IMG/VR virus record: IMGVR_UViG_3300028591_000077
From: a virus
Taxonomy: Duplodnaviria > Heunggongvirae > Uroviricota > Caudoviricetes
Strand: one strand, 5' to 3'
DNA length: 64,000 nucleotides
This document shows, piece by piece, positions 31,128-62,962 of the stretch; position 1 is the first letter of the stretch, and each line of letters starts with the position of its first letter. The notes under the pieces were generated by a model, which was not told where the DNA came from, ran no database searches, and saw only the letters and a program-made list of their open reading frames with translations. The position numbers and the translations under genes are program-made.

Positions 31128-31282
31128 TTTTTAAGAACAGAGCGTAAACTCTGTTTTATTTTTTGCAAAATTTTTGAAAACAGCGCAAAACTATCGTATA
31201 ATATTATAGAATTGTGCAATAAATATATAAAAAAGTTATAAGCACATTAAAATTTAAACTACATATGAAAGGAGTAAAAATT

Positions 31283-36197: not shown

Positions 36198-36274
36198 AAA
36201 AATATCGCGTTTTTGCGCGGTATTTTTATTTTAAGCCGTATAATATTATATATTACTTTGGAGGTATACATCTC

Positions 36275-36805
36275 ATGAAAAACACATTAGTTGTTAATCT
36301 ACTCGGTGGTCCAGGAGTTGGAAAATCAACTCTTACCGCTGCTATTTTTGCAAAGTTGAAAGACTTAGACGTCGATTGTGAAATGGCTTCTGAGTTTGCG
36401 AAAGAGCTCGTCTGGGAGCAAAGAAATGAAACGTTCAAGGATGAACTATACATCTTTGCAAAACAAGCCCACAGGCTATTCAGATTGAACGGAAAGGTCG
36501 ATGTAGTCATCACTGACAGACCATTGATTCTTACTTGCTTCTATGCTAAGAATGATAAAGCATTAAGCAAATTCTGTTTAGACCGCTTCGAGCAATATAA
36601 TAACATGAATTATTTACTCATAAGAGAAAAAGCGTACAATACTAATGGTAGAAATCAAACAGAAGATGAAGCAAGATCCATTGACAGAGAGACTAAATAT
36701 CTGCTTGAAAGCTATGATATTCCTTATACGGAACTCCCTGGCAATATGGAAACTGCTGATATCATCGTTAAAGAAGTTTTAGAAAGGTTAAAGGAAATCA
36801 AATAA
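36275..36805 (+). CDS. P-loop kinase-like protein
   Basis: Walker A LGGPGVGKST; adjacent to Thg1-like and RNA ligase genes. Confidence 0.5.
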   Translation: MKNTLVVNLLGGPGVGKSTLTAAIFAKLKDLDVDCEMASEFAKELVWEQRNETFKDELYIFAKQAHRLFRLNGKVDVVITDRPLILTCFYAKNDKALSKFCLDRFEQYNNMNYLLIREKAYNTNGRNQTEDEARSIDRETKYLLESYDIPYTELPGNMETADIIVKEVLERLKEIK

Positions 36806-37992: not shown

Positions 37993-38048
37993 TTTACAAA
38001 CCTCCGAATTTATCGTATAATATTATGGTAGATATCGGAGGTATTTTT

Positions 38049-38978
38049 ATGAATTACAAAGCATATCAACACATTGAAAAAATTGGAAGCGGAGAAGTCG
38101 AAGGAATTCTTAATGGAACCTGCTATCTTTTCTATAAGATTGACGGAACTAATTCTTGCATTTGGCTTAAGGATGATGGAACGTTAGGCTTTGGTTCTAG
38201 AAAAAGAGAGCTTACTACAGGCAAAGATGGCGATAACCAGGGATTTATGACTGCCATCACCACAAATGAGTCCTATAAGGCTGTTTTTGAAGATATTAAG
38301 GCATTTTTGATTAATAATCCTAATTGGATTCTTTATGGCGAATGGTTAGTTCCTGTCAATATCAAGAATTATAAGGATGATGCCTGGAGAAACTTCTACG
38401 TCTTTGATATTTATGATACTGTTGAAGACAAGTATCTCGATTTCGACCGATACAGCAAGCTTTTAGATAAGAAATATCCTAATATCAAATACATTCCTCT
38501 TTTGGCCAAACTTGAGAATCCGACTGAAGAAGATATCAAAGCTCTTCTCCCTAGAACTGGTGAATTCTTAATTAGCGAAGGCCTTGGTGAAGGTATTGTT
38601 ATCAAGAACTACGATTATGTTAATAAGTATGGCCGTAGAACTTGGGCTAAGATGCTTACTGAAGACTTCTTGTCAAAAAAGAAAGGTCTTCGCGAAGGTA
38701 AGAAAATTGCAGCCGAAGAAGGTACTTCTACTGAATATGAAATTGTTAAGCTTCTTACTGTTGAGCATATCGTCAAAGAGAAAACAAAGGTTATGGAAAG
38801 ACGCAATAGCCCAACTTTTGAAATGAACATGGTTGCAGAGCTTTTGAATCGTGTATTCGATGAGTTCTGGAGGGATAACTGGGAAATCATTCTCAAGAAA
38901 TTTCACAACCCAACCATTAACTTCAAGACTTTGAAAGCTCTTTGCAACAATAAAGTAAAGGAAACATTAGGTATTTAA
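38049..38978 (+). CDS. RNA ligase (Rnl2-like nucleotidyltransferase)
   Basis: motif I YKIDGTN (KxDG), motif IV EGIVIKN, motif V WAKM; start set at ATG after ggaggt RBS. Confidence 0.65.
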   Translation: MNYKAYQHIEKIGSGEVEGILNGTCYLFYKIDGTNSCIWLKDDGTLGFGSRKRELTTGKDGDNQGFMTAITTNESYKAVFEDIKAFLINNPNWILYGEWLVPVNIKNYKDDAWRNFYVFDIYDTVEDKYLDFDRYSKLLDKKYPNIKYIPLLAKLENPTEEDIKALLPRTGEFLISEGLGEGIVIKNYDYVNKYGRRTWAKMLTEDFLSKKKGLREGKKIAAEEGTSTEYEIVKLLTVEHIVKEKTKVMERRNSPTFEMNMVAELLNRVFDEFWRDNWEIILKKFHNPTINFKTLKALCNNKVKETLGI

Positions 38979-42616: not shown

Positions 42617-42630
42617 TTAAGCTCTTTTTT
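42603..42630. terminator. bidirectional terminator
   Basis: perfect palindrome aaaaagagcttaattaagctcttttttt between convergent genes. Confidence 0.7.
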
Positions 42631-44606: not shown

Positions 44607-45071
44607 ATGAACATTATTAAGTACCCAGACGAAAGGCTTAGAGAAATTTCCAACAAAGTCAGTCTCCCGCTTTCTGCAAAAGACAGAGCAACTTTAGATG
44701 AAATGTATTCATGGCTAAAAGATAATAGCGATGCTGCCGTTGGCTTATCAGCTATTCAAATTGGCATTGCAAAAAGAATGTGTGTCATTAGAATTAAAGA
44801 CGAAAAGACCATTGGTTACAAGCTGGTTAATCCGAAGATTATTAAGCACTCTAATAGACAAATATTTATGTCAGAAGGATGCTTGTCTGTGTTAGAAGAT
44901 CATGAAGAGGCCATCCCAAGATGGGAATCTGTTGTGGTAATGGCTTATGATGCCATCTCAAATAAAAATATTGTAGTTGAAGCGACTGGCTTTCTAGCGA
45001 GAGTTTTTCAGCATGAAATTGATCATATGGATGGCAAACTTTATATTGATTATATTAAGGAGGAAATGTAA
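44607..45071 (+). CDS. def: peptide deformylase
   Basis: GLSAIQIG, EGCLS and QHEIDH match PDF motifs 1-3; leaderless ATG right after ttgtataatat. Confidence 0.85.
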   Translation: MNIIKYPDERLREISNKVSLPLSAKDRATLDEMYSWLKDNSDAAVGLSAIQIGIAKRMCVIRIKDEKTIGYKLVNPKIIKHSNRQIFMSEGCLSVLEDHEEAIPRWESVVVMAYDAISNKNIVVEATGFLARVFQHEIDHMDGKLYIDYIKEEM

Positions 45072-45487
45072 TGATTGATAAATTCGATGAAGAATATAGT
45101 TTTTTAAGTAATTATTATCCATGTAAAGTTGTTTATAATGGTTATACATTTTTAAGTTCAGAAGCTGCATATCAATCTCAGAAAGACCCAAGCCGCGTGG
45201 AAGAATTCATTAATTTAGAAGCGGATGATTCAAAACACTTGGCCAGAAAAGTTAACATTAGGCCAGATTGGGAAGAAGTTAAATTACCAATTATGGAAGA
45301 AATTGTTAGAGCTAAATTTGAGCAAAATAAAGACCTTGCTGAAAAATTAATTGCAACAGGCGATGAAGAACTTGTTGAGGGTAATTATTGGCGCGATTGT
45401 TTCTGGGGTGTCTGCAATGGTCAAGGTGAAAATCATTTAGGCAAAATACTTATGCAGATAAGAGCTGAACTTGGTGGTAATAAATAA
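45071..45487 (+). CDS. NADAR (YbiA-like, DUF1768) domain protein
   Basis: FLSNYY, SEAAYQSQK, RAKFEQN..L...L.ATG...LVE, WG...G.G.N.LG align with E. coli YbiA. Confidence 0.75.
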   Translation: MIDKFDEEYSFLSNYYPCKVVYNGYTFLSSEAAYQSQKDPSRVEEFINLEADDSKHLARKVNIRPDWEEVKLPIMEEIVRAKFEQNKDLAEKLIATGDEELVEGNYWRDCFWGVCNGQGENHLGKILMQIRAELGGNK

Positions 45488-45765
45488 TGGAATTTAAACC
45501 AAATTATAGAACCGAAGACGGCTTATTTGAAATAATGCTCGATAAGAGCGCCTTAACTTTAGAGCATCCAGAAGCAAGAGCAAATTGGGTATCTAAAGAT
45601 ATCACTTCTTCTGCAAAAATAACTGTCTATAATACTGAAACTAAAGCTTTAAGCCAAAAATCAATTTATTACAGCAAAACAAAAGGTTTTTATTTTAAGG
45701 GACATTATGGCTATTGGAATAACTATAGCTATAGTATCAGCGAATTAGTACCTATAGAGGAGTAG
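45487..45765 (+). CDS. hypothetical protein (92 aa)
   Basis: ORF. Confidence 0.45.
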   Translation: MEFKPNYRTEDGLFEIMLDKSALTLEHPEARANWVSKDITSSAKITVYNTETKALSQKSIYYSKTKGFYFKGHYGYWNNYSYSISELVPIEE

Positions 45766-45769
45766 AACA

Positions 45770-47107
45770 ATGTTGTCAAAATTTAGTCAATTTGTCAATG
45801 AGATTTTAGCTGATAATTCAAGATTGGCTAAAATTGCTGTTTTAGAAAAATATAAGGATGATGAATCCGTTAGGTATTTTTTACAGTTTGTTTATGACCC
45901 ATATGTTACAACCGGATTATCCGATAAGAAATTAAATAAAGATGTCGAGATCTTTAGCTATAGCTTATTTGATGCCGACGGTAATTTTAATGAAGATTGT
46001 GATACTATTTTTCAGCTTGACTGCTCAGAGGATGAGGATAAGGCAATCTTTGAATATATTAAAGAACATAATACCGGTAGGGATAGTGATATTAGAACTG
46101 TTCAGAATTTCAAGAAAAGTCATTTTAATAAATGCCCCGAAATGCTTGATTTGTTTGATAGAATAATTACTAAGAATCTTCAATTAGGTATTGATGCGAA
46201 AACTATTAATAAAGTTATTCCAGGTCTTATTCCTGAATTTAATGTTATGCTTGCAAATAAATATTTCGATAAACCAGAAGTTATTGATGGTAGAGAGTTT
46301 GTTATCACAACAAAAATTGATGGTTCAAGAATTATCGCAATGAAGGATAATGGCCAAGTTAGTTTTTGGACTCGTCAAGGACAAAAATACGAAGGCCTTA
46401 TTGACTTAGAAGAAGCTCTTAAAAATATTAGTGAAGATAATTTTGTACTAGATGGCGAAATCGTTGCCATGAATACAGATAAAGAAGACACTTATAAAAA
46501 TACCATGAAGCTTAGTAGAACAAAAGAGCAAGCTAAGCATGGTCTTAAAATGTTAGTCTTCGATTATATGCCAATTGCTAATTTCAAGCTTCAGTGTTGC
46601 CCAATGACTTATAGTGCAAGAAGAAGTACTTTATCTGCAATATTTGACCTTAATGGACAACATCTTGCACCTTATTTTGAATTATTGCCAATGCTTTATA
46701 GAGGCACAGATACTAATAAAATAATCGAACTTTTAAACGAGCAAACAGCCAAAGGTGAAGAAGGAATCATGATTAACATCTGTGATGCCCCTTATGATTT
46801 CAAAAGAAGCAACAATCTTCTTAAAGTAAAGAAATTCCAGGATACTGAAGTTAAGATTGTTGGATATGAAGAAGGTGTTAATAAATTAGCTGGAACATTG
46901 GGCGCATTTATATGCGAATATAAAGATAATATTGTGCGTGTAGGCTCCGGATTAAGCGATGAAGATAGAGCTTATTTCTGGGCTAATCAAGATAAATATC
47001 TAAATAAATATATCACGGTCAAATATTTTGAAGAAAGCTATGATTCTAAGACAAATCTTCCTTCATTAAGATTCCCAATTTATATGAGGGTTAGAGAAGA
47101 CATTTAA
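45770..47107 (+). CDS. ATP-dependent DNA ligase
   Basis: motif I KIDGSR, motif III LDGEIVAM, motif IV EGIMINI, motif V LLKVKKF. Confidence 0.75.
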   Translation: MLSKFSQFVNEILADNSRLAKIAVLEKYKDDESVRYFLQFVYDPYVTTGLSDKKLNKDVEIFSYSLFDADGNFNEDCDTIFQLDCSEDEDKAIFEYIKEHNTGRDSDIRTVQNFKKSHFNKCPEMLDLFDRIITKNLQLGIDAKTINKVIPGLIPEFNVMLANKYFDKPEVIDGREFVITTKIDGSRIIAMKDNGQVSFWTRQGQKYEGLIDLEEALKNISEDNFVLDGEIVAMNTDKEDTYKNTMKLSRTKEQAKHGLKMLVFDYMPIANFKLQCCPMTYSARRSTLSAIFDLNGQHLAPYFELLPMLYRGTDTNKIIELLNEQTAKGEEGIMINICDAPYDFKRSNNLLKVKKFQDTEVKIVGYEEGVNKLAGTLGAFICEYKDNIVRVGSGLSDEDRAYFWANQDKYLNKYITVKYFEESYDSKTNLPSLRFPIYMRVREDI

Positions 47108-47158
47108 TTAAAATATTATTGCTAAATTATATTAGTTACTGGTAAAGGAGAATATAAT

Positions 47159-47419
47159 ATGGCAAAAGGTAAAGGCAGTAAATCAAGTGGTGGTCCACAT
47201 AAAAGTCATGGTCCTAAGAGACACATGTTTAGATGGGCTGGCCCAATGAAACATGAGTTTGCTAAATCTGGTCTTCTAAGCAAATACTATGATTTTGAAT
47301 CTTGGCAATTAGCTATGGCAGCAAGAGGCTGTAAAAAAGCTGATTACAATGAGTTTAAGACATTCGTATTGCTAAGCATGGAAGAAAAGAGAGCATACTT
47401 CGCAAATCTTAAAAAATAA
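47159..47419 (+). CDS. small basic protein (86 aa)
   Basis: ORF after TTGCTAAATTAT motif; terminator 47405-47437 follows. Confidence 0.45.
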   Translation: MAKGKGSKSSGGPHKSHGPKRHMFRWAGPMKHEFAKSGLLSKYYDFESWQLAMAARGCKKADYNEFKTFVLLSMEEKRAYFANLKK

Positions 47420-47527
47420 GGCTCAAATTGAGCCTTTTTATTTATAAAAATAAAAATCGTATAATACTATGTTGGGTTCCCGGAATGGTCCATAGCATTC
47501 TAGCCCGTAAGTGGAGAAAGAGAAAAT

Positions 47528-47794
47528 ATGGATAAGAAAAGCACAAAGGGGCTGACTGCTGTTGAGGCAAGAGCGCTCGCAGACAAGGCTGAAGTTCTTT
47601 TAGGAAGAATTTATAAAGGCATCAAAGAACAAGCAAGAGAAAGCATGACTACGCTTAATTATTATCTCTCTGATGCAAGTGCGATAGCTGTTGAAACGGT
47701 AGTAAATACTCTAAAGATTGAAGGCTATCAGGTAGAAGCTGTTACGAACAAGACGGATGATGTTGTTGAAACAGTAATCAAAATTGCTTGGTAA
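47528..47794 (+). CDS. hypothetical protein (88 aa)
   Basis: ORF with 70-nt structured leader. Confidence 0.45.
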   Translation: MDKKSTKGLTAVEARALADKAEVLLGRIYKGIKEQARESMTTLNYYLSDASAIAVETVVNTLKIEGYQVEAVTNKTDDVVETVIKIAW

Positions 47795-47862
47795 TCAGGA
47801 AAAGAATTATAATTAGAGGGTTTATTGTTTACAAACCCTCTTTTTTATTGTATAATAATAGT

Positions 47863-48255
47863 ATGAGATATTTCATTTCTGGCCATGGTTGGCTTTCACA
47901 AGAACAATTCAATCAATACTACGTCCCAGTCTTAGAGCGAATCTTAGAATACGATTTAAGTAATTCAGAATTCGTTGTTGGAGATTTCAAAGGCGTAGAT
48001 ATTATAGCGCAGCAATGGCTTGTCGATCACGGTAAGGCAGAACAGCTTACAGTATATCACATGTTTGATAAGCCAAGAAACCTTGCGACTGGTTGTGAGC
48101 ATTATTGTGAAATCAAGACAGTTGGCGGATTCAAGACTGATGAAGAAAGAGATGCAGCCATGACGGCTAATTCGGACTTCGATATCGCATTCGTGTTTAG
48201 AAAGAATTCAGGCACAGAGAGAAATATCAAAAGACGACATATGAAAGGAGCCTAG
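47863..48255 (+). CDS. hypothetical protein (130 aa), leaderless
   Basis: ATG right after ttgtataataatagt. Confidence 0.45.
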   Translation: MRYFISGHGWLSQEQFNQYYVPVLERILEYDLSNSEFVVGDFKGVDIIAQQWLVDHGKAEQLTVYHMFDKPRNLATGCEHYCEIKTVGGFKTDEERDAAMTANSDFDIAFVFRKNSGTERNIKRRHMKGA

Positions 48256-48258
48256 AAG

Positions 48259-49683
48259 ATGTTTGTTAAAAAAGTAGAATTTAATTGGACAGATACAAAT
48301 CTATTAAGTAGCTTACTTGGCCTATTTAATGCTTTTAAGCACGCAGATAAAGAATTATATCTTGTTGGCGGTTGCGTTCGAGATTTACTTCTAGGCAAAA
48401 CTCCAAAAGATTATGATTTATGCACAAACGCCACCCCTGATGAAGTTAAGGCTATTTGTGAAAAGACCGAATTAAAGACTTTTGATTCCGGTATTAAGCA
48501 TGGAACATTAACTGTTATTGATGATTTATATCATCAAAGCTTTGAGATTACAACCTACCGTATCGATGGAAAATATTCAGACGGTCGTCATCCTGATGAA
48601 GTTGTTTTTACTCCTTCATTAGAAGAAGACTTAAAACGTCGCGACTTCACAATCAACTCTTTCGCTTATGCTTTATCAAAACAAGAATTAATTGCTTTAG
48701 ATGAGTCTTATTTCAAAGACTTAGAATATGGCATTATTCGAACTGTTGGAAATCCAGAAGAAAGATTTAAAGAAGATGCTTTGAGAATGCTTAGAGCGTT
48801 CAGATTCATGGCGCAACTTAATTTCAGCCTTGATGCCAATACATTTAATGCTATTAAGGCTTTAAATTCACTTCTTGTAAATGTTTCTAAGGAAAGAATT
48901 AGAGATGAGCTTACAAAGATTGTTATGAGCGATAATCCACAAGTTTTAGAGCTTATTGTTATTGCTAAGCTAGAGATATATATTTTTGATGGTAAAACTC
49001 CATTAACAGATTGCGTCAATTGCCAACATGATAATCCATGGCATTATACTGACGTATTTCATCACACAATGGATGTCATTAAAAGAGTGCCTAAAAAGTT
49101 TGAGCTAAGATGGGCTGCATTGTTCCATGATTTTGGAAAACCAGCAACAAAGCAACTAAAAGAGGGAACTACAAATCATTACAATTATCACGGCCATCCA
49201 GACGTTTCTGCTGAAATGGCCCTGGTTTTGATGGATATTTTGAAGTTTTCAAATGACCAAAAAGACTTAATTTATAAGTTTGTTAAATATCATGATACTG
49301 ATTTAGTGTCTTGCAGAAATGCAACGTTCAAAAATGTTCTTGTTGAGATTGGTGTTGAACATTTTCCTGACTTTATTAAATTAAAGCTAGCAGACGCAAT
49401 GGCACATCAAATCACAAAAGATACAAAGTGGGCTATCGATGCAATTAGCAAACTTTATGAAAGATTTGATAAAACAGTCGTCGAATCACAAGCCTTGACA
49501 GTTAAGGATTTAGCAATCAACGGTTATGATATAATCAATGATGGATTTTTACAAGGTAAAGAAATCGGCGATTGCCTAAGATGGATGCTTGATATCGTGT
49601 TAGAGCACCCAGAATATAACACACGAGAAAAATTGCTTGAGCTTCTTCAAACGTTCAAGGAGATGTCTTTTCAGGCAAGCTAA
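48259..49683 (+). CDS. cca: CCA-adding tRNA nucleotidyltransferase with HD domain
   Basis: LVGGCVRDLLLGKTPKDYDL pol-beta head motif; downstream HD motifs HHTMDV / FHDFGKP. Confidence 0.8.
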   Translation: MFVKKVEFNWTDTNLLSSLLGLFNAFKHADKELYLVGGCVRDLLLGKTPKDYDLCTNATPDEVKAICEKTELKTFDSGIKHGTLTVIDDLYHQSFEITTYRIDGKYSDGRHPDEVVFTPSLEEDLKRRDFTINSFAYALSKQELIALDESYFKDLEYGIIRTVGNPEERFKEDALRMLRAFRFMAQLNFSLDANTFNAIKALNSLLVNVSKERIRDELTKIVMSDNPQVLELIVIAKLEIYIFDGKTPLTDCVNCQHDNPWHYTDVFHHTMDVIKRVPKKFELRWAALFHDFGKPATKQLKEGTTNHYNYHGHPDVSAEMALVLMDILKFSNDQKDLIYKFVKYHDTDLVSCRNATFKNVLVEIGVEHFPDFIKLKLADAMAHQITKDTKWAIDAISKLYERFDKTVVESQALTVKDLAINGYDIINDGFLQGKEIGDCLRWMLDIVLEHPEYNTREKLLELLQTFKEMSFQAS

Positions 49684-49695
49684 GAGGACAAAACA

Positions 49696-50256
49696 ATGAA
49701 AGTGATATTCTTAGACATAGATGGCGTTATGAATGACGAGCTCGCATACAGGGCTTGGAAGGAAAACCCAGACAAAGAGACCTTTGAAGATTCTGACGTT
49801 CCTACGGATCAGCATATGGCTCAATTAAAGAGAATTGTTGATGCGACTGGCGCGGAGATTGTTTTGTCCTCAGCCTGGAGATGCTCTATTTGGGGCATGA
49901 GGACTGTTCTGGAGCGCCTTAATGACTATGGCTTAAAGTTATTAAGCGTTACTGATGAAGGTGTCCCAGAATCAGTTTTAGACGCCTCTGGCTTTGGTGA
50001 TTTAGAACCAAGAAGTGTGTCTAAGCGTTCTTGGGACGGTTCCAACACCATGATTGTTAATGATCGTGGTGCAGAAATTGCCGGTTGGATGCTAAGACAA
50101 AAGAATAAAGGAGTCAATATTGAATCATTCGTTATCTTAGATGATGAGGATGTCGATATTGTTCAATACTATCCGAAAAATCTTATCAAAACAAGCTATA
50201 TGGCTGGCTTGACTGATGAAGATGTTGAAAAATGTATCAGTATACTAAATAATTAA
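49696..50256 (+). CDS. HAD-superfamily phosphatase (paralog A)
   Basis: FLDIDGVMN motif I, VLSSAWR; paralogous to 55165 ORF. Confidence 0.55.
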   Translation: MKVIFLDIDGVMNDELAYRAWKENPDKETFEDSDVPTDQHMAQLKRIVDATGAEIVLSSAWRCSIWGMRTVLERLNDYGLKLLSVTDEGVPESVLDASGFGDLEPRSVSKRSWDGSNTMIVNDRGAEIAGWMLRQKNKGVNIESFVILDDEDVDIVQYYPKNLIKTSYMAGLTDEDVEKCISILNN

Positions 50257-50257
50257 A

Positions 50258-51235
50258 TTGTATTATATAAAGGAGGTGCTGCTTATGAGAGACACAAATT
50301 TACCAATGTACCAAATGATTGCAGATGTCAATGAACTTAAATGGTTTTTTGATCATGTCATTCAAAAGCCACAAGTTAATGAATCTTATTCTGCTGTCTT
50401 TGTAAGCAGACATAAAAAGCTTACAAAAGAAGAACAAGAAGAAGTCGGTCTAACCCGTAAAGAAGCAGAATTTTTAGCTACACAAACTTTTAGACTTGGC
50501 AGCTTTAAAGACGCTTTATATATTGATGAGGCAAATAACTGGACTTTTGATAGGTTTTTACAAAGGGTTAGACGTTTTAATGTCGATAAATATTCTTATA
50601 CGACTTCTAAAGGTCAACCTATCCCAACGAAAACTTTGGCTGTTATTTTCTATGTCAACCCATGTGATGACATCAAAGTCGTCAGGGAATTCATCAATCA
50701 ATATTTAGACGTCAGTCAGGCTATTTCAAAAGCTATGCTTGGTGGCAAAACGACTGTTGACAATCTTCAAAGCTATCAATGGTTTGGCAATGCTGAAAGC
50801 AATCTTAAGCATTTAAAAGCAAATCAAAAAGGCACTAGATATTGGATGGACTTCGATATCGACGTTCCTAAATGGTTTAAAACAAATAGCTACAAAGACC
50901 ATAACGAAAAAACAGTTACCTATTTCGAAGCTTTAAAAGAACAACTTACTTTGAGGTTTGGAAAAGGCAATTATGTAGTGGTTGATACTAGCGGCGGATA
51001 TCACGTGCTAGTAAAAACAACTTCTATAAAAGAAGATCCACATAAATTCTGCACTGCCGTAAAGCTTATCTATCAACTTGGCATTATGGCCGGTGAGGAA
51101 GAATACTTAGATGAAAAAGGCACATGTAAGTTTGAGTGCATTATCAATGATTCTCAAATTCCTGGTTTACCTCTTCCTGGCACCTATCAATATGATAGAC
51201 CTGTCACGGTTCTAAATAAGGAGGACTTTGACTAA
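50258..51235 (+). CDS. hypothetical protein (325 aa)
   Basis: ORF. Confidence 0.5.
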   Translation: MYYIKEVLLMRDTNLPMYQMIADVNELKWFFDHVIQKPQVNESYSAVFVSRHKKLTKEEQEEVGLTRKEAEFLATQTFRLGSFKDALYIDEANNWTFDRFLQRVRRFNVDKYSYTTSKGQPIPTKTLAVIFYVNPCDDIKVVREFINQYLDVSQAISKAMLGGKTTVDNLQSYQWFGNAESNLKHLKANQKGTRYWMDFDIDVPKWFKTNSYKDHNEKTVTYFEALKEQLTLRFGKGNYVVVDTSGGYHVLVKTTSIKEDPHKFCTAVKLIYQLGIMAGEEEYLDEKGTCKFECIINDSQIPGLPLPGTYQYDRPVTVLNKEDFD

Positions 51236-51513
51236 TGTTCGAGAGAATAGTGGAGCTCATGGACCTAAACCGTGAGCTCCATATTGAAGTAAATAAAACT
51301 ATTGCTGATATTAGAGCTAAATATCCTAATATTTACAAAAGACAAAAAGGAATCAGAGTTCCTTATACTTATACTAAGTATGATACTAAATATCTCATCT
51401 TTGATTATGATACAGGATTTTTCTGTATAAAGTTTGGAGATGGTAAGGCGGCAGGTTTTGATTTGAGAAAATATAAGAAAACTTGGGCCTTTAGCAAGGA
51501 GGACTTCGAATAA
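51235..51513 (+). CDS. hypothetical protein (92 aa)
   Basis: ORF. Confidence 0.45.
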   Translation: MFERIVELMDLNRELHIEVNKTIADIRAKYPNIYKRQKGIRVPYTYTKYDTKYLIFDYDTGFFCIKFGDGKAAGFDLRKYKKTWAFSKEDFE

Positions 51514-51629
51514 TGGGAGTATTTACAGTAATCGGCATTATCACAGTTTCAACGATAGCAGGATGTCTTGTTGGAGTGCCAGTCGGAACCATGCTTGGCC
51601 GTTTAATTGAAAATTATTTAAATAAATAG
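51513..51629 (+). CDS. small TM peptide (38 aa)
   Basis: ATG overlapping TAATG; hydrophobic. Confidence 0.3.
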   Translation: MGVFTVIGIITVSTIAGCLVGVPVGTMLGRLIENYLNK

Positions 51630-51639
51630 GAGATACATT

Positions 51640-52062
51640 ATGTTAATAGATGAAATCAAAAAAGCGAACATAGATGCTATGAAGGCACGCGACGCAGATG
51701 CACGTGCGGTATTATCTATTGTAATTAATAAATACACAACTGCTAATATAGAAGCAAAAGCTGCTGGAAAAGAACTAACAGATGCCGATATGTTAGCAAT
51801 TATCCAAAAGACTCTAAAAGAACTTCAAGATGAGGGTGAGGGTTATTGGAAAACAGGCAATGCTGAAAGATATGATTCTATTACTCACCAAAAAAGAGCT
51901 ATTTCTGTATTCTTACCAAAGCAGCTTACGGAAGCCGAGATTAGGGCTGAGATAGATAAATTAGAAGACAAGTCAATTCCAAGCGTTATGAAGCACTTTA
52001 AAGCCAATTTCGCAGGTCAGGTTGATATGTCTGTAGTTAGCAGAATTGTGAGAGGAGCTTAA
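51640..52062 (+). CDS. GatB/YqeY domain protein
   Basis: N-terminal helix pattern EIKKANIDAMKARDADARAVLSIVINK resembles YqeY. Confidence 0.55.
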   Translation: MLIDEIKKANIDAMKARDADARAVLSIVINKYTTANIEAKAAGKELTDADMLAIIQKTLKELQDEGEGYWKTGNAERYDSITHQKRAISVFLPKQLTEAEIRAEIDKLEDKSIPSVMKHFKANFAGQVDMSVVSRIVRGA

Positions 52063-52063
52063 T

Positions 52064-52564
52064 ATGGCAGAAATTAAAGAGTTAACTCTTGATGAGTGCA
52101 GAACTCAAACTCAAAAACATATTGATTTAGTTAATAAACTAGGTCGTATTTATATCAACGAGCTTAATACTAGACTTGCCAACCACGATAAGTCTAAGCT
52201 AGAAAGTCCTGAAGTCGAAGAATTTGCCAAGGTTACAAATGGCCTTGCTACTACGACCTATGGCAGTGAGGAATACATGAAGTTCTTAAAAGAAGACTTA
52301 GCTCTTGCTCTTGAGCATCACTATGCTCACAATCGTCACCATCCAGAGCACTTCGGCGAACGTGGCGTCGACGCTATGAATCTGTTTGATTTAGTTGAGA
52401 TGTTCTTAGACTGGCTAGCTGCCTCTAAGAGACAAAACAACGGCAATCTTATGGTTAGCATTGATAAGTCTTGTGAAAGATTCAACATTACTGGCACGCT
52501 TGCCAATATCCTTAGAAATACTGTGGATTACTTTGATGCAATATTAAGTGCGGAGGATAAATAA
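52064..52564 (+). CDS. His-rich putative metal-dependent (HD-like) protein, paralog 2 of 3
   Basis: NHDKSK ... HHYAHNRHHPEHF. Confidence 0.45.
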   Translation: MAEIKELTLDECRTQTQKHIDLVNKLGRIYINELNTRLANHDKSKLESPEVEEFAKVTNGLATTTYGSEEYMKFLKEDLALALEHHYAHNRHHPEHFGERGVDAMNLFDLVEMFLDWLAASKRQNNGNLMVSIDKSCERFNITGTLANILRNTVDYFDAILSAEDK

Positions 52565-52899
52565 TGTTTATTGAAATTAGAGACATCAATTCAGAAACCA
52601 ATGGATTAGATCTTGCAATTGTTGATACAGAGTCCATTCAAGAAATCTTATGCAAGGATGGGGACACAGAACAAATAAGACATGATGAAGACGGTAAAGT
52701 TTATACTTATTATCGCATTGTGATATCTTATAAAAATGATAGCGGTAATACAACATTTTGTTTTAGGTCAGCAGAACAAAGAAAAGCTACTTATAATGCT
52801 TTAATGAAGGTATTAGAAGTTAAACCGCTGATTCCTGAAGCTATTGAGCCAATATTCTCTACGGAATCATCAATATTAAAGCCATTGTCAGATTATTAA
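52564..52899 (+). CDS. hypothetical protein (111 aa)
   Basis: ORF; terminator 52906-52935. Confidence 0.45.
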   Translation: MFIEIRDINSETNGLDLAIVDTESIQEILCKDGDTEQIRHDEDGKVYTYYRIVISYKNDSGNTTFCFRSAEQRKATYNALMKVLEVKPLIPEAIEPIFSTESSILKPLSDY

Positions 52900-52990
52900 T
52901 TTAAAAAATCAGCAAAATTGCTGATTTTTTATTATTTTAACCGTATAATATAATGCAGTTAAGTTAAACATTATTCGGAGGAGCAATTAA

Positions 52991-54079
52991 ATGAAAGTAG
53001 TTTGCACAGGTTCAACGTATAAGATTTATGATAATAATTTAAAGACCTATGATCAGCTACCGCCAGCCACATATCTTGTTGGCTGTGGTCAATTTACCGG
53101 TTTTTATTTAGAAAAACAAGAAGATGTCGTCGTCAATGAAAAGATTTATGGTGTGCATCAGGCAAAAGTTGATAAGATTTTAGCATCTTTTAAAGATTTT
53201 GAAAGAAACCTTGGCGTTATCTTATCTGGTGATAAAGGCATTGGTAAATCATTATCAGCAAAGCTTTTAGCTCGGGATGCTATTGCCGCAGGTTATCCTA
53301 TTATTCTTGTCAATAGCTACTTCGAAGGTATTTCTGAGTTCATCGACAGCATTACGCAAGAAGTTGTTGTTGTCTTTGATGAATTCGATAAGACTTATTC
53401 TGAAAAAGGCGCGCAAACTCAGTTACTTACACTTTTAGATGGTTTCGGTTCTGGCAAAAAGCTATTCGTCATTACTTGTAATAATTTAAGCAATGTTAGC
53501 GAATTCTTAGTCAATCGTCCAGGACGTTTCCATTATCACCTTAGATTCGGCTATCCAACTCATGAGGAAATTCGTGAATATCTACAAGATAAGCTCGATA
53601 AGAAATATTGGGGTGAAATTGATTCTGTCATTGTTTTCAGCGGCAAAGTCGAATTGAACTATGACTGCTTACGCGCTATCGCTTTCGAGCTAAATCGTGG
53701 AAGCACATTTAAAGAAGCAATCAGCGACCTTAACATCGTCAATTACAATAAGTCTACTGAGGCTTACGTCGCAACGCTTATTTGCGAAGACGGCACACAA
53801 ATGGTCTTGAAGCAATGCTATGTCGATTTCAGCGACTATGACGAATACTTCTCTATTACATTCCGTGGTAACGACTTACGTTGCTATGTTGAATTCAATC
53901 CATTTGAAGCTGGCTATTATGACAGTTCTAGAATGCTTACTGTTGTCCAAGGTAAAGATGTTGAAGCACAATGGACTGACAGGGTTGGTAATGACCTTAA
54001 GAAAAACGTTAAGACTCCAGTCATTAAAGAAATTCTCTTCAAGCGTAAATACGATTATAATATCCATTATGCTGTATAA
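52991..54079 (+). CDS. AAA+ ATPase
   Basis: Walker A GDKGIGKS, Walker B VVVFDEFD. Confidence 0.6.
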   Translation: MKVVCTGSTYKIYDNNLKTYDQLPPATYLVGCGQFTGFYLEKQEDVVVNEKIYGVHQAKVDKILASFKDFERNLGVILSGDKGIGKSLSAKLLARDAIAAGYPIILVNSYFEGISEFIDSITQEVVVVFDEFDKTYSEKGAQTQLLTLLDGFGSGKKLFVITCNNLSNVSEFLVNRPGRFHYHLRFGYPTHEEIREYLQDKLDKKYWGEIDSVIVFSGKVELNYDCLRAIAFELNRGSTFKEAISDLNIVNYNKSTEAYVATLICEDGTQMVLKQCYVDFSDYDEYFSITFRGNDLRCYVEFNPFEAGYYDSSRMLTVVQGKDVEAQWTDRVGNDLKKNVKTPVIKEILFKRKYDYNIHYAV

Positions 54080-54130
54080 AAAGCCGGTTATTCCGGCCTT
54101 TTTTATTGTATAATAAAATGAGGTATTTTT

Positions 54131-54976
54131 ATGAGCAGAGAAGAAAACGTTAGGATTTTTCAAGACACAATGAATTTTATTCATGATAATAAAATCTTGT
54201 CAGAAGCTGTAAGAAGCACAATTCAAAATACAAAGCTTTATAAGACTTCACAAGAGCCCACAAATTTAGCTACTAAATGTTTTTTAAATAATGTCTTTGT
54301 GACAAACCATAAGACTTTTGAAGCAGTTTTTGAGTTACGTAAGACATATCTTAACTCTAAGATTGCAGTTCTCAACTTCGCTTCGGCAACAAAACCTGGC
54401 GGTGGAGTGACAAGTGGTGCTTCTGCACAAGAAGAGGCTTTATGTAGATGCTCTACATTATTTCCGTGTCTATCAACCAAAAGACTTTATGAAGGATTCT
54501 ATGGTCCGCACAGGGTAGATGGCAATCCACTTCATAATGATGATATTATTTATACACCAGATGTTATTATTTGCAAGACAGACGATGGTAGGTTTAATAG
54601 ACTATCCGATGATAAGTTTATTAAAGTAGATGTCATTACTTGTGCTGCTCCAAATCTAAGACATAACCCAAATCATCCTTTTAGCGATTATGATAGGGTT
54701 GTGGATGATGCAGTTATTTCTGCCACTGACTTAGAAGAGCTCCATTATAGAAGGGCGAAACAAATTCTTAATGTAGCTATTGAAAATGGTGTTAAAGTTT
54801 TAGTTCTTGGTGCATTTGGCTGTGGCGCTTTTAAAAATAGCCCAACTGTTGTAGCAAGAGCCTATAAAAGAGCTTTAGAGCAATATGCATCTAAGTTTGA
54901 TGAAATTGAATTTGCAATTTATTGCAGGGATTATGAAACTCAGAATTATGATGCATTTAAACGAGAATTAGAATAA
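54131..54976 (+). CDS. PARG-like macrodomain protein (DUF2263-type ADP-ribose glycohydrolase)
   Basis: PGGGVTSGASAQEE fits the PARG signature GGG-X6-8-QEE. Confidence 0.6.
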   Translation: MSREENVRIFQDTMNFIHDNKILSEAVRSTIQNTKLYKTSQEPTNLATKCFLNNVFVTNHKTFEAVFELRKTYLNSKIAVLNFASATKPGGGVTSGASAQEEALCRCSTLFPCLSTKRLYEGFYGPHRVDGNPLHNDDIIYTPDVIICKTDDGRFNRLSDDKFIKVDVITCAAPNLRHNPNHPFSDYDRVVDDAVISATDLEELHYRRAKQILNVAIENGVKVLVLGAFGCGAFKNSPTVVARAYKRALEQYASKFDEIEFAIYCRDYETQNYDAFKRELE

Positions 54977-55164: not shown

Positions 55165-55809
55165 ATGTGCATTATATTTTTAGATATAGATGGTGTATTA
55201 AATGCTGCTAATGATTTTGGTGGTCGTAAAAAGCCAAATCCAATTGTAACGTCAGATTCTGGCATTAGGTATTGTGGCATTAGCAAAACAAAAGCTAAAG
55301 AGCTTAAGTGGATAGTCGATAAAACTGACGCCAAAATTGTTTTAGTATCTTCTTGGAAAAGTGATTATGCAGAATATTTAAGAAATAAAACGAATAAAAC
55401 AGGCAAATATCTGTATAATAAGCTTAGAAAAGTTGGCTTATCAATTTATGACCATACTAACGATTTAGCCGTTGGTTTTCATTCTCATCGCGGGCACGAG
55501 ATAGTTACTTGGCTTGCTAACCAACCTGAGCCAATAGATGCTTGGGTAGTGCTCGATGATGAAGTATTCAGCGACTACGGCGATAGTATTAAGCAAAATC
55601 TTATTTTAACCTCTGAACATGATGGTTTAACACATGAGCTGGCAAAGCTTGCTGCATGCAAACTATTGGGACTTCCCGAGGGTTCATTCGATACTGAGTT
55701 TGAAAAGCTAGCAAAAGAGATGACTGCAGCGGCAATTCCAGCAGTTGAAGAAAAAGAACTGGTTATTATTAAACCAAATGGTCCTGCAAAACAAATAAAC
55801 AATAAATAA
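55165..55809 (+). CDS. HAD-superfamily phosphatase (paralog B)
   Basis: FLDIDGVLN, VLVSSWK. Confidence 0.55.
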   Translation: MCIIFLDIDGVLNAANDFGGRKKPNPIVTSDSGIRYCGISKTKAKELKWIVDKTDAKIVLVSSWKSDYAEYLRNKTNKTGKYLYNKLRKVGLSIYDHTNDLAVGFHSHRGHEIVTWLANQPEPIDAWVVLDDEVFSDYGDSIKQNLILTSEHDGLTHELAKLAACKLLGLPEGSFDTEFEKLAKEMTAAAIPAVEEKELVIIKPNGPAKQINNK

Positions 55810-55830: not shown

Positions 55831-56490
55831 ATGTGTATGAATTTATTAGAAACCTATGATGAATTAAGTGCATTAAATGAATCGCCTATATATTCAGCAT
55901 ATGAACCAATAAATTTAGAAGCATTCGAGAATGGCACAAATAATGTGCTATATATTGTAGGCATGCCAGGAAGTGGAAAGTCTACCTTGGCTGATATGTT
56001 AGCAGAACAATATGGCGCTAAAATTATCAACCTTGATAATGGCTGACTCGGTGGCATAGTTAACGTTACTGACGAAGAGCTTGAGATTTCTTGGTTTGAT
56101 GAAGAATTTTGGCGTCATTTTCCTAAATACAGAACAACATTTGACAATGTTTGCAAGTATGTGAACGAGCATCCAGAGGACCCGTATGCTGCTGAAAATT
56201 GTCCTGACACAGATTCTGTATTAGGCGGCACCTATTATACCGATTATATTAAATATGCAATAGAATACGCTAATAGTCATAAACAAGAAAAGTTTATAAT
56301 TGAAGGCGTTCAACTATTAGATAGAGATTCTGCTGGATATTTACATAGAGCTCTTATGGGACCAGACCCTTCTATATTATTCATGAGAACTAAATCAAAA
56401 AGAGTTACAAGAAATATTAGAGCAAGGGATAAAGCTTGGGGATTAAAGCCAAGAGACCCAAAAGAGTTACACAAACAAAACATGAAATGA
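55831..56490 (+). CDS. P-loop NTPase/kinase-like (one TGA-Trp)
   Basis: Walker A GMPGSGKST; ORFs 55831 and 56161 joined via TGA 56044. Confidence 0.5.
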
Positions 56491-60682: not shown

Positions 60683-62962
60683 ATGAGAACATTATTGATA
60701 TTAAGAGGAGCCCCAGGTGCTGGCAAATCAACTTGGGTAGAAAATATGGGATTAAAGAGCTATACTCTTTGTCCAGATGACATCCGTGTCTTGTGCGCTT
60801 CACGCGATTTACAAGCCGATGGTTCTTTTGCTATTGCTAGAAATCATAATGTCGAACAAGAAACCTGGAAAATCATTTTAGACCTTTTAGAATATAGAAT
60901 GTCTCGTGGCGAATTAACTGTTTTAGATGCAACAGCTTCTAAAACAAAAGATATTTTACAATACCGTGAATTAGCTGAACAATACCGTTATAGAATGTAT
61001 TGTGTTGATTTTACAGATGTTCCTATTGAAGTATGCAAAGCGCAAAATCTACAAAGACCTGAAGACAAAATTGTTCCAGAATCTGGCATTGATAACATTT
61101 ATGCACGTTTTGCTACACAACCTGTTCCTTCTCGTGTGGAAGTCATCAAACCAGATGAAGTTGAAAAGATTTTAGAAAAACCAATGGATTTATCTACTTA
61201 TAGAAAGGTAGTCTTTATTGGTGATATTCATGGTTGTTACGATACTTTAATGCAATATCCAGATTTTAAAGATGGATTAAAAGATGATGTTGAATACATC
61301 TTTTTAGGTGACTATATTGACCGTGGAAATCAAAACGCTGAAGTTATGAACTGGTTATATTCTATCATGAACAGACCAAACGTTTGTTTATTAGAAGGGA
61401 ACCATGAAAAATATTTAAGAGACTATGGAGCTTCTGTTCCTGCAAAGTCTTCTGAATTTGAAGATAAAACAAAACCACAGTTAATCGCTGGCGGTTTTGA
61501 TGAAAAGAAAGCCAGAATGTTTTATCGTAAAGTTCGCCAAATGTCACACTTTACTTGGAACGGCCTTGAAGTATTAGCCTGCCATGGCGGAATTCCATGC
61601 ATGCGCGCAAACCTTACTTATATTCCTACATGTGCGTTTATCAATGGTGTCGGTGAATATAAAGACTATCAAGTTATTGCCGATACTTGGATGAAAGAAA
61701 CTAAAGAAAACCAATATTTAGTTCACGGTCATAGAAACACTGCGCAAGACCCAGTTCAATTGGCTGATAGAGTTTTTAACTTAGAAGGCGAAGTTGAATA
61801 TGGTGGAAAATTACGTATTGTTGAATTAGAAACTAAAGGTCAATATCCAGAGTATGGTGTCACTGAAAATGGCGACAGAATCCCAGTTGGATTTAATACT
61901 TTATTTAATTGGAATGTTGTTGAATTAGACGACTGCCAACCTGTTACTGAGGAGACACAAACAGAACAACGTAGAGTCGATACTGTTGAGCAAGCAGTCG
62001 ATTATTTAAGAAACAATAAGTTCGTCAAAGAAAAGAAATTAGGTAATGGTATCTCATCTTTTAACTTTACTCGTGAAGCTTTCTATTCTGCTAACTGGAC
62101 AAGACAAACAGTCTTAGCTCGCGGATTATTTATTGATACAGATAATAATAAGATTATGGCGCGTTCATATGAGAAGTTCTTCCGTATTAATGAAGTTCGC
62201 GAAACTGAAATGATTGCTTTAAAGAACAGACTACAATTCCCAGTCAAAGCTTATATCAAAGAAAATGGTTTCTTAGGAATCGTTTCTTATAACTACAAAA
62301 CTGATGATTTATTTATCGCTACAAAGTCATCTGATAAGGGTGATTGCGCGGATTATTTCACAGCAATGCTTGAACCTTATAGAGCAAAAATCCTATTTAC
62401 ATTAAAGACATATTATGAAGCTGGAAATCCAATTTCATTAGTCTTCGAATGTGTTGATCAAGAACATGACCCACATATTATTAGATATGATTCAAGCAAA
62501 GTAATTTTACTTGATGGCGTCAAAAACACTCTTACTTATGACACAATTTCATATACTGAGCTAAAAGCTTGTGCACTTGGAATTGGTTGTGCTGTTAAAG
62601 AGTTGGCTTATACTATCAAAGATTGGGATGAATTCAGAACCTTGGTTATGGCTGCTGATGATGAAGACTATAAATATCAAGGAAGATATATTGAAGGATA
62701 TGTCTTCGTAGACTCTTCAGGATTCATGACTAAGCTAAAAACTGGTTATTATAATTTCTGGAAGTTCATGAGGGGCGTCGCTGACGCGACACTTCGCTGT
62801 GGATACTACCGTAGACTTGGCGCGCTAAATACTGCTGCCGCAAATCAATTCTATGGATTCTGCAAAAAGTGCTTCAATGAAGACAGAATTGTAGAAACAA
62901 AGAGTTACCCATATAAAACAGACATTATTTCATTAAGAGAAAAATTCATCGGAGGTAAATAA
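60683..62962 (+). CDS. pnkp: polynucleotide kinase-phosphatase (bacterial Pnkp-like: P-loop kinase + calcineurin-type phosphoesterase + C-terminal ligase-like domain)
   Basis: Walker A GAPGAGKST; GDIHGC / GDYIDRG / GNHE metallophosphatase triad; C-terminal KENGFLG (KxNG lysine motif). Confidence 0.7.
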   Translation: MRTLLILRGAPGAGKSTWVENMGLKSYTLCPDDIRVLCASRDLQADGSFAIARNHNVEQETWKIILDLLEYRMSRGELTVLDATASKTKDILQYRELAEQYRYRMYCVDFTDVPIEVCKAQNLQRPEDKIVPESGIDNIYARFATQPVPSRVEVIKPDEVEKILEKPMDLSTYRKVVFIGDIHGCYDTLMQYPDFKDGLKDDVEYIFLGDYIDRGNQNAEVMNWLYSIMNRPNVCLLEGNHEKYLRDYGASVPAKSSEFEDKTKPQLIAGGFDEKKARMFYRKVRQMSHFTWNGLEVLACHGGIPCMRANLTYIPTCAFINGVGEYKDYQVIADTWMKETKENQYLVHGHRNTAQDPVQLADRVFNLEGEVEYGGKLRIVELETKGQYPEYGVTENGDRIPVGFNTLFNWNVVELDDCQPVTEETQTEQRRVDTVEQAVDYLRNNKFVKEKKLGNGISSFNFTREAFYSANWTRQTVLARGLFIDTDNNKIMARSYEKFFRINEVRETEMIALKNRLQFPVKAYIKENGFLGIVSYNYKTDDLFIATKSSDKGDCADYFTAMLEPYRAKILFTLKTYYEAGNPISLVFECVDQEHDPHIIRYDSSKVILLDGVKNTLTYDTISYTELKACALGIGCAVKELAYTIKDWDEFRTLVMAADDEDYKYQGRYIEGYVFVDSSGFMTKLKTGYYNFWKFMRGVADATLRCGYYRRLGALNTAAANQFYGFCKKCFNEDRIVETKSYPYKTDIISLREKFIGGK

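Follow-up and report, generated by a model that had tools for sequence, protein, structure and literature searches.

Two families of enzymes that remove ADP-ribose are represented in the phage DNA described here, a 64,000-nucleotide stretch (hereafter, the window) of IMG/VR virus record IMGVR_UViG_3300028591_000077 (Caudoviricetes) that encodes, on the + strand, a NADAR domain protein (45071..45487) and a bacterial-type poly(ADP-ribose) glycohydrolase (PARG) macrodomain protein (54131..54976). NADARs associated with the toxin DarT1 strip ADP-ribose off guanine in DNA (PMC11543638), and guanine-linked ADP-ribose on DNA and RNA is hydrolyzed by all NADAR subtypes tested (PMC11125620, PMC11833690), T4 NADAR and E. 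coli YbiA being among those that reverse guanine ADP-ribosylation on RNA (PMC11833690). The removal of ADP-ribose from guanine in DNA, which a preliminary description of this locus had ascribed to NADARs, is thus true of every subtype tested. Four subtypes from E. coli and T4 were active in vitro, but neither YbiA nor T4 NADAR, expressed alone, rescued cells from DarT1 (PMC11125620). During infection, NADARs of three unrelated lineages, T4 AdfN and those of Bas32 and Bas60, counter DarTG1 (PMC11825919). Among PARGs, SCO0909, DRB0099, and human PARG reverse the 2'-O-ADP-ribosylation of RNA by RhsP2, which only PARG-type macrodomains do; they are also the enzymes with the highest activity toward RNA that is ADP-ribosylated on its 5' phosphate, and they shield cells from RhsP2 (PMC11833690). 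In D. radiodurans, DRB0099 is encoded in an operon with the RNA/DNA ligase DRB0100 and the HD-phosphatase/polynucleotide kinase (PNK) DRB0098 (PMC11833690). In phages, NADAR is found in about half of medium and jumbo genomes (PMC9503650). The Macro, NADAR, SLOG, and Nudix genes of jumbo-phage NAD+/ADP-ribose and RNA-repair neighborhoods have already been catalogued by comparative genomics, and many of their products have been argued to take soluble ADP-ribose derivatives as substrates (PMC9503650, PMC7824862).

From their sequences, both genes of the window appear to encode catalytically intact members of these known families. We favor the reading that both enzymes reverse ADP-ribose damage and that their local context, beside enzymes that heal and seal ends, favors nucleic acids as substrates, RNA above all; we put the chances of this at about even.

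The NADAR protein (138 amino acids [aa]) was assigned from Pfam, alignments to Protein Data Bank (PDB) sequences, and residue mapping, and is a minimal form of the YbiA subfamily. Residues 6 to 134 of the 138 match PF08719 (95.2 bits, E = 6.7e-27, cut-off 35.1), and the open reading frame (ORF) also matches phrog_1017 (E = 3e-42). Its alignment with E. coli YbiA (2B3W, E = 8e-15) spans the full length, as the preliminary description had claimed, and so does that with a Phytophthora NADAR (8BAU, E = 4e-10); the YbiA alignment contains the motifs FLSNYY, SSEAAYQSQK, RAKFEQ, and FWGV.CNGQGENHLG. In the crystal structure of PnNADAR, ADP-ribose is contacted by E43, K50, R79, W89, R93, E125, D130, and W133 (PMC11543638). 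HMMER alignment maps these to E31, K38, R59, W67, K71, E103, D109, and W112 of the window protein, so that seven of the eight are identical and R93 is replaced by K71, the same swap as in YbiA. Across 24 members of the clade, K38, W67, K71, E103, D109, and W112 are invariant, conservation of E31 reaches at least 90%, and arginine and lysine alternate at position 59.

The residue at PnNADAR E125 marks the subfamily: glutamate in the YbiA type, aspartate in the DarT1-associated/DarG1/BC4488 type, and histidine in the T4-type phage NADARs (PMC11543638). E103 of the window protein aligns with E125 of both PnNADAR and YbiA, and the protein is classed as YbiA-type because of glutamate at this position. 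The T4-type features of AdfN were not found: histidine is absent from the marker position, and PF08010 (gp30.3) gave no match at E <= 0.01. The best NCBIfam match, TIGR02464 (riboflavin biosynthesis intermediates N-glycosidase), falls just under its cut-off (72.8 versus 73.7 bits). The ORF begins six residues ahead of the core and lacks an N-terminal extension; the extension of DarG1 is a proposed single-stranded DNA binder (PMC11543638). NADAR homologs were found in 754 of 50,697 phage records, some of them annotated beside GTP cyclohydrolase II.

The PARG protein (281 aa) is identified by PF10021, TIGR02452, matches to 5ZDB and 3SIG, and its predicted structure. It scores 126.5 bits against PF10021 PARG_cat_microb (E = 1.4e-36, cut-off 23.5) and 198.3 bits against TIGR02452 (cut-off 50), and it aligns over nearly its full length with the PARGs of D. 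radiodurans (DrPARG; E = 1.3e-28) and T. curvata (TcPARG; E = 8e-24), although identity to solved bacterial PARGs is only 26 to 31%. The profile searches that the preliminary description had proposed for the two ORFs therefore place both far above the cut-offs of PF08719, PF10021, and TIGR02452. The GGG-X7-QEE signature noted there was recovered as P89-GGG-VTSGASA-QEE102, in which seven residues (the PARG signature, GGG-X6-8-QEE, allows six to eight) separate G90-G92 from Q100-E101-E102, the latter aligned to the catalytic Q110-E111-E112 of DrPARG. A diphosphate loop, G227-AFGCGAF-234 (GxGxxF), places G230-C-G232-A233-F234 opposite G224-F228 of DrPARG. The QEE, GGG, and GxGxxF motifs are all invariant in an alignment of 20 relatives. 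The AlphaFold2 model is confident (predicted local distance difference test [pLDDT] score 90.3, predicted template modeling score 0.91) and has helices at residues 3 to 33 ahead of an alpha/beta core. The predicted fold is that of a PARG-type macrodomain, as the preliminary description had supposed: in Foldseek the top matches are PARGs, with template modeling (TM) scores of 0.78 to 0.83 to 3SIG (TcPARG) and 0.70 to 0.82 to 5ZDB (DrPARG), and generic macrodomains come at a distance behind. In TcPARG, an arginine at the "ribose cap" position shields the 2'-OH of the adenosine ribose and enforces exo-only cleavage, and DrPARG has T267 there (PMC6445106). The clade-invariant N272 of the window protein, a small residue without charge, aligns with T267, and the basic cap residue of the TcPARG type is absent. 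At this position the protein appears to resemble the open DrPARG type; the consequence for activity we can only infer.

With respect to substrates, the preliminary description had expected the macrodomain to act on both protein- and nucleic acid-linked ADP-ribose. The second half of that expectation stands on the published activities. The first does not: mono-ADP-ribose attached to protein through Glu or Ser was not released by DrPARG (PMC6445106), and protein-linked ADP-ribose is therefore not an expected substrate of this PARG.

PARG homologs are rare in phages: they were detected in only 20 of the 50,697 phage records, and nearly all of the 20 belong to megaphages (Lak, phage G, and two 600-kb uncultured phages). 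A search of PHROGs found no PHROG for the family. In Bacillus phage G (L001, 56154-76966), the homolog gp114 lies 5.5 to 7.6 kb downstream of an array of nine tRNA genes and is followed after 3.4 kb by another macrodomain gene, gp122, annotated as an Appr-1-p processing domain. In bacterial contigs, homologs with ∼50% identity are abundant. Several of these (P0050, P0062, P0069, P0080, P0113, and P0114) are fused to an Epsilon-antitoxin domain (PF08998), which suggests that some members of the family may serve as antitoxins. On one bacterial chromosome (L007, 10001-11564), a 52%-identical homolog lies directly upstream of SIR2, forming a PARG-sirtuin pair.

The activities of the two families set out what the enzymes would do. 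NADAR would act as an N-glycosidase that detaches ADP-ribose from guanine N2 in DNA or RNA, as every NADAR tested does. PARG would act as an O-glycosidase that cuts the ribose(1''->2')ribose bond of poly(ADP-ribose) and of 2'-O-ADP-ribosylated RNA, and it would also free 5' or 3' phosphate ends capped with ADP-ribose. Adducts laid down by host ADP-ribosyltransferase (ART) toxins, or by NAD-dependent end processing, would in this way be stripped from RNA (from tRNA in the first place) and perhaps from phage DNA as well, after which the neighboring kinases, phosphatases, nucleotidyltransferases, and ligases would restore function. We consider damage reversal the most likely role because both genes lie within an island of RNA end-healing, sealing, and tRNA-restoration genes. 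Nucleic acids, RNA foremost, are the favored substrates because of this local context and its parallel with the DRB0098-DRB0100 operon: downstream of PARG stand a HAD phosphatase gene and a P-loop kinase-like ORF, as in the ligase-PARG-PNK operon of D. radiodurans. We likewise infer a counterdefense role and coupling to RNA repair. Counterdefense is the leading idea, and its target could plausibly be DNA, RNA, or soluble ADP-ribose derivatives.

A stronger version of damage reversal, which we advance tentatively and think rather unlikely, makes the two proteins dedicated RNA de-ADP-ribosylases wired into phage tRNA and RNA repair ahead of the flanking enzymes. PARG would take 2'-O-linked and phosphate-end ADP-ribose and NADAR guanine-N2 ADP-ribose; HAD and metallophosphatases, kinases, CCA-adding and Thg1 enzymes, and ligases would then complete the repair. 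As a variant, PARG may open the 1''-2' glycosidic bond of Thoeris-type glycocyclic ADP-ribose (gcADPR) signals.

The island spans ∼29 to 63 kb of the window (29181-62962) and holds an unusually complete set of RNA-repair and tRNA-restoration genes, all on the + strand. Reportedly, Burroughs and Aravind in 2016 described RNA-repair gene systems as made up of a ligase, a nucleotidyltransferase, an end-modifying kinase or phosphatase, and a scaffold. All four classes are co-located here: ligases at 38025 and 60683, nucleotidyltransferases at 48259 and 35247, kinases and phosphatases at 36275, 49696, 55165, and 60683, and a Band-7 protein at 31265. NADAR and PARG may take part in such a system. 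In its upstream half, the island begins with a nucleoside deoxyribosyltransferase-like gene (from 29181) and a DUF5662 gene (30297-30890; PF18907), followed by the SPFH/Band-7 gene (31265..32782; PF01145, 79 bits), a Thg1-like 3'-5' polymerase (35247-36197), an AAA_28 kinase (36275-36805), and a PF09414-family RNA ligase (38025-38978). A 395-aa protein of unassigned function is listed between the kinase and the ligase (within 35247..38978), and a MazG-like gene starts at 38980. The two halves are divided by the sole sizeable minus-strand block (42629-44299), where a family-2 glycosyltransferase of 379 aa that carries TPR repeats is encoded together with an ORF of 101 aa resembling part of a similar protein; GC and AT skew drop there.

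The downstream half opens with peptide deformylase (PDF; 44607..45071; PF01327, 138 bits) and NADAR, then a 92-aa ORF (45487..45765) for which Pfam, PHROGs, and PADLOC gave no family match, and an ATP-dependent DNA ligase (45770..47107; PF01068, PF14743, phrog_114), the last large gene of the unit to which PDF and NADAR belong. Next come a CCA-adding tRNA nucleotidyltransferase with an HD domain (48259..49683; PF01743, PF12627, PF01966, phrog_2244), a first phosphatase-like protein with the HAD_SAK_2 domain, the HAD domain of RNA-repair proteins (49696..50256; PF18143, 83.5 bits), and a conserved 316-aa protein (50285..51235). These are followed by a YqeY-like gene (51640..52062; PF09424, 67.5 bits), a second DUF5662 gene paralogous to that at 30297-30890 (52064..52564; PF18907), and an AAA ATPase directly upstream of PARG (52991..54079; phrog_2376). 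Two genes downstream of PARG is the second HAD_SAK_2 phosphatase-like gene (55165..55809; PF18143, 86 bits), whose product shares 31% identity with the first. Beyond the P-loop kinase-like frame (55831..56490), the set closes with a fusion of polynucleotide kinase, metallophosphoesterase, and T4 Rnl1-type RNA ligase (60683..62962; PF13671, PF00149, PF09511), which has a Pnkp-like architecture and matches TIGR04075 in part.

Three of these neighbors carry further observations. The P-loop frame comprises 219 codons with a Walker A motif, GMPGSGKST, and is interrupted by one in-frame TGA (56044-56046). This is not a read error, because an identical truncated gene call of 71 aa is present in independent assemblies (L002 and L003); the TGA could mark a pseudogene, read-through, or stop-codon recoding. 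The 316-aa protein has no match in Pfam, PHROGs, NCBIfam, or PADLOC, yet its homologs on gut-phage contigs, 66 to 85% identical, make up over 100 protein clusters; one homolog lies 0.8 kb downstream of PARG in L049-L053. Its AlphaFold2 model is of low confidence overall, confident only at residues 185 to 290, and returned no Foldseek match below E = 0.1. Its motifs WMDFDID and SGGYHVLV resemble those of archaeo-eukaryotic primase (AEP)/prim-pol proteins, a tentative, motif-based guess; a profile search of PDB sequences found nothing relevant to it. Finally, a 130-aa ORF in the interval between the DNA ligase and CCA-adding genes (47863-48255, + strand) was considered as a SLOG (YAcAr) protein but has no Pfam match even at E <= 1. 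It is collinear with the YAcAr/SLOG neighbor of NADAR in the related locus L134 at a nonsignificant level (BLASTP E = 0.095). A SLOG identity, which is not established, would complete a Macro-SLOG-NADAR triad.

Several observations weigh against damage reversal on nucleic acids as the common purpose of the two genes. NADAR and PARG are separate genes and do not form a module: a gap of 8.6 kb that contains terminator-like hairpins lies between them, and they probably belong to different transcription units. The stop codon of PDF overlaps the start of NADAR, and that of NADAR the start of the 92-aa ORF (TAATG in both cases), and these genes continue into the DNA ligase. A terminator-like hairpin with a T-run (47418..47436, + strand), found by consensus scan only, likely ends this unit. 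Ahead of PARG (54083..54114, + strand), a hairpin GCCGG-TTATT-CCGGC with T6 (54083-54104) is followed by TGTATAAT, an extended -10-like element (54107-54114), and then by GAGG. Because the hairpin and the TGTATAAT element stand directly upstream, PARG probably heads its own transcription unit together with a 59-aa ORF and the second HAD_SAK_2 gene; these promoter and terminator calls are pattern matches to consensus-level signals. In addition, adjacency to particular neighbors such as PDF and the AAA ATPase is not conserved, gene order in jumbo-phage accessory regions can be fortuitous, and E. coli YbiA, the prototype of the subfamily, gave no protection from DarT1 in vivo (PMC11125620). The conserved neighbors of both clades in related phages are also NAD+ salvage rather than RNA-repair enzymes, which means that a role in processing soluble ADP-ribose derivatives fits at least as well.

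We also asked whether the locus could be a dedicated module of a known kind. A toxin-antitoxin or NARP-type module was rejected for lack of a partner gene: a search of the window plus 10 kb on either side (Pfam at E <= 1e-3 for window ORFs of at least 90 aa, and precomputed annotation for the flanks) yielded no ART, DarT, KptA, 2H, Nudix, SIR2, or NAD salvage gene. The NAD+ reconstitution pathways (NARPs) consist of Adps and Namat (NARP1), Nampt and Nmnat (NARP2), or PnuC and NadR (NARP3) (PMC13464706); none of these genes is in the window, where only the AAA_28 kinase at 36275-36805 was noted. In PADLOC, NADAR scored only weakly (46 bits) against PDC-M42C, the model of a candidate system, and PARG matched nothing, so that a reading of the locus as a defense system finds no support there.

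To compare gene context elsewhere, 80 IMG/VR loci encoding PARG homologs were reduced to 61 lineages at 90% identity, and 10 kb on each side was searched by BLASTP (E <= 1e-5) with a fixed query set made up of the window proteins and NAD genes from a relative. A parallel survey of the NADAR clade covered 80 loci in 37 lineages. The counts are lower bounds to which no null model was applied. NADAR and PARG as a conserved pair were rejected, given that the NADAR clade of the window lies within 10 kb in only 1 of the 61 PARG lineages; their co-occurrence in a jumbo phage is expected because roughly every second medium or jumbo phage encodes a NADAR (PMC9503650). Conserved PDF-NADAR or AAA-PARG adjacency was rejected as well, with no such neighbor matches near the homologs. 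In favor of damage reversal, RNA-repair genes stand near PARG in 5 to 6 of the 61 lineages. In L016 and L017, the gene directly upstream of PARG encodes a CCA-adding enzyme, and beyond it lie a DUF5662 gene and a kinase-like ORF; HAD_SAK_2 is nearby in L030 and L040, and Thg1 and YqeY in L070. Two clusters of metallophosphoesterase-like genes, assigned from motifs by eye, were seen beside PARG in 10 and 9 of the 61 lineages, at times on both sides of it (L030, 8759-11864; L037, 8674-11863); these loci resemble mobile elements, with ParB-like and PIN/AbrB-like genes.

The same surveys carry the strongest alternative, a possible but less probable one, in which both enzymes process soluble ADP-ribose derivatives, either in the economy of NAD+ or to quench signals raised by TIR, SIR2, or ART NADases. 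PARG would open the 1''-2' bond of gcADPR-type signals or ADP-ribose oligomers, NADAR would cut N-glycosidic links of the cyclic ADP-ribose (cADPR) type, and the outcome would be a destroyed signal and free ADP-ribose for recycling. The closest PARG homolog (60% identity; L004, 6715-11604) lies in a phage cassette running from NAPRTase through Nudix, PncA, phosphoribosyl pyrophosphate synthetase (PRS), and PARG to NAD synthase, on a contig that also carries a T4 gp13-like gene, and NAD salvage genes (PncA, NadE, and NAPRT) were found within 10 kb of PARG in 7 of the 61 viral lineages. NadE or PncA appears in 7 of the 37 NADAR lineages, among which recurrent neighbors were NadE (7), PncA (7), PRS (6), Thg1 (6), and CCA-adding enzyme (6), with DNA ligase (4) and SIR2 (2) less frequent. 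The closest relatives of NADAR sit in two Pfam-confirmed NAD cassettes, ordered PncA, PRS, NAMPT, Macro, NADAR, NadE in L144 (6726-11165) and PRS, NAMPT, KptA, Macro, SLOG (YAcAr), x, NADAR, x, NadE, NMNAT-like in L134 (3722-12358), where x is an ORF without a name. From these orders, PARG in L004 fills the slot that Macro plus NADAR hold elsewhere. The composition of the three cassettes, which are of the Preiss-Handler type with an ADP-ribose hydrolase, is unlike that of NARP1, NARP2, or NARP3. Against a soluble substrate, the window and its flanks contain no NAD salvage gene; no paper on the action of PARG on gcADPR turned up in a literature search, and neither NADAR nor PARG is known to hydrolyze cADPR isomers. 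Furthermore, the demonstrated activities of both families all concern macromolecule-linked ADP-ribose or riboflavin intermediates. The readings considered here are not mutually exclusive.

A more specific form of counterdefense was the conclusion of the preliminary description, which took the presence of both genes to indicate an answer to ART-based immunity. In this form, NADAR is an orphan DarG1-like antitoxin of the AdfN kind that cleans phage DNA of DarT1 products, and PARG covers other ART immunity; for NADAR, this is a subset of damage reversal, and as a whole we judge it unlikely. Its basis is sound insofar as all tested NADAR subtypes cleave guanine-ADP-ribose on DNA, the catalytic residues are intact in the window protein, and NADAR is translationally coupled into a unit ending in an ATP-dependent DNA ligase. 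The AdfN proteins of T4, Bas32, and Bas60 all reverse DarTG1 defense in spite of their unrelated lineages (PMC11825919), Bas32 and Bas60 showing that NADARs outside the T4 type are capable of it. However, E103 is the YbiA signature, neither the histidine of the T4 type nor the aspartate of DarG1. The protein also lacks both a PF08010 match and a DarG1-like N-terminal extension, YbiA and T4 NADAR did not neutralize DarT1 when expressed alone (PMC11125620), and PARG has no known activity on DarT products. What survives of that conclusion is thus the activity of NADAR and the AdfN precedent; the absence of a module, the YbiA subfamily, and the RNA-repair and NAD context tell against it. On balance, a dedicated anti-DarT module is less in keeping with the context than the removal of ADP-ribose from RNA, from DNA, or from small molecules derived from NAD.

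It is very unlikely that the two enzymes control the phage's own ARTs (Alt/ModA/ModB-like enzymes or PARP-like PARTs), as a self-immunity or timing device. Phage ARTs are common, and jumbo phages fuse or pair NAD+-utilizing domains with Macro or NADAR "toggles" (PMC7824862). The bacterial PARG homologs beside SIR2 or fused to the Epsilon-antitoxin domain likewise stand in an antitoxin-like setting. However, the search described above detected no ART, SIR2, or PARP-like domain in the window and 10 kb on each side. Least credible of all is metabolic housekeeping, with NADAR acting like YbiA on reactive riboflavin intermediates and PARG a passenger from a Firmicute host with no part in conflict: despite the near-threshold TIGR02464 match, the phage NADARs beside GTP cyclohydrolase II, and the abundance of ∼50%-identical PARGs in bacterial contigs, the window has no riboflavin genes, active sites are strongly conserved in the phage-borne clades, NADAR is found in 754 phage records, and YbiA itself hydrolyzes guanine-ADP-ribose (PMC11125620, PMC11833690).

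These genes are carried by a gut-metagenome jumbo phage whose genome is at least 237 kb long, since proteins of the window recur on metagenomic contigs of 131, 237, and 239 kb. The window with its 10-kb flanks, the latter judged from precomputed annotation, covers 84 of these at least 237 kb. The window is densely packed with phage-like genes in a + strand array at 34% GC, and ARAGORN and Rfam found zero tRNA genes and zero RNA-family matches in it. Megablast of an 11-kb region against the 50,697 phage records gave zero matches, that is, no relative at the nucleotide level in this collection. At the protein level, the closest matches of the AAA ATPase (52991..54079) are from Herelleviridae of Bacillus and Enterococcus and from human fecal contigs, a pattern indicative of Herelleviridae-like Firmicutes phages.

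An arm of bacterial immunity now emerging works by ADP-ribosylation, either of DNA (DarTG) or of RNA (CmdTAC, RhsP2-like toxins), and among the ADP-ribose-removing families considered here phage counterdefense has so far been demonstrated for NADARs (AdfN) and DarG-type macrodomains. Phage NADARs and their anti-DarT role are already published, as is the association of Macro and NADAR with RNA repair and NAD in jumbo phages. Two elements are modestly new: a PARG-type macrodomain stands in a phage RNA-repair island, and in NAD salvage cassettes PARG takes the same position as Macro plus NADAR. The first, with PARG beside phosphatase, kinase, and ligase genes, offers a testable case for phages undoing O- or phosphate-linked ADP-ribosylation of RNA; the second gives a handle on the function of widespread, unassigned phage genes. 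If the two proteins are indeed RNA de-ADP-ribosylases, RNA ADP-ribosylation would be a common antiphage weapon in gut Firmicutes that phages repair enzymatically, and this would be the first anti-defense role for a PARG. Should neither the RNA ADP-ribosylation nor the NAD-cassette idea hold, the locus would be an ordinary instance of the catalogued NAD+/ADP-ribose gene set of jumbo phages.

Among known systems, DarTG1 and DarTG2 offer one comparison. In these, a NADAR (DarG1) or a macrodomain (DarG2) also reverses ADP-ribosylation of DNA bases, but the window genes adjoin no DarT or other ART, the macrodomain is of the PARG and not the DarG type, and the NADAR has neither the aspartate signature nor the N-terminal extension of DarG1. 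The window NADAR resembles AdfN in being an orphan, stand-alone gene in which E31 and K38 are spaced seven residues apart, like E36 and K43, the residues mutated in T4 AdfN (PMC11825919). It differs from the T4 type in having glutamate instead of histidine, in the lack of a PF08010 match, and in its relatives in NAD salvage cassettes. T4 30.3 is encoded near a DNA ligase gene, as the window NADAR is.

With the YbiA subfamily (2B3W, 8BAU, and the YbiA antitoxin associated with myxobacterial YarT), the window NADAR shares the fold family, full-length alignment, and the contact residues including the glutamate, and like these it is a single domain without an N-terminal extension. It is, however, ∼20 residues shorter than YbiA, phage-encoded, and just under the TIGR02464 cut-off, and it lies outside a LexA operon with no ART toxin adjoining. 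The phage NAD+-ADP-ribose network described by Iyer, Burroughs, and Aravind (PMC9503650, PMC7824862) matches the locus in its stand-alone Macro-type and NADAR genes in an early or accessory jumbo-phage region, alongside RNA ligases, kinases, phosphatases, CCA-adding enzyme, and Thg1, and also in the cassettes of Macro, SLOG, NADAR, KptA, and NAMPT that relatives carry. The window differs from it in that its Macro gene is of the rare PARG type and that KptA, 2H, Nudix, and NAD salvage genes are absent. For the PARG itself, DRB0099, 3SIG, and SCO0909 are the nearest counterparts. The window protein is set apart by its phage origin and its 26 to 31% identity; it shares with them PF10021 and TIGR02452, both loops, and a macrodomain preceded by an N-terminal helical extension, and, like DRB0099, it is encoded among ligase, phosphatase, and kinase genes.

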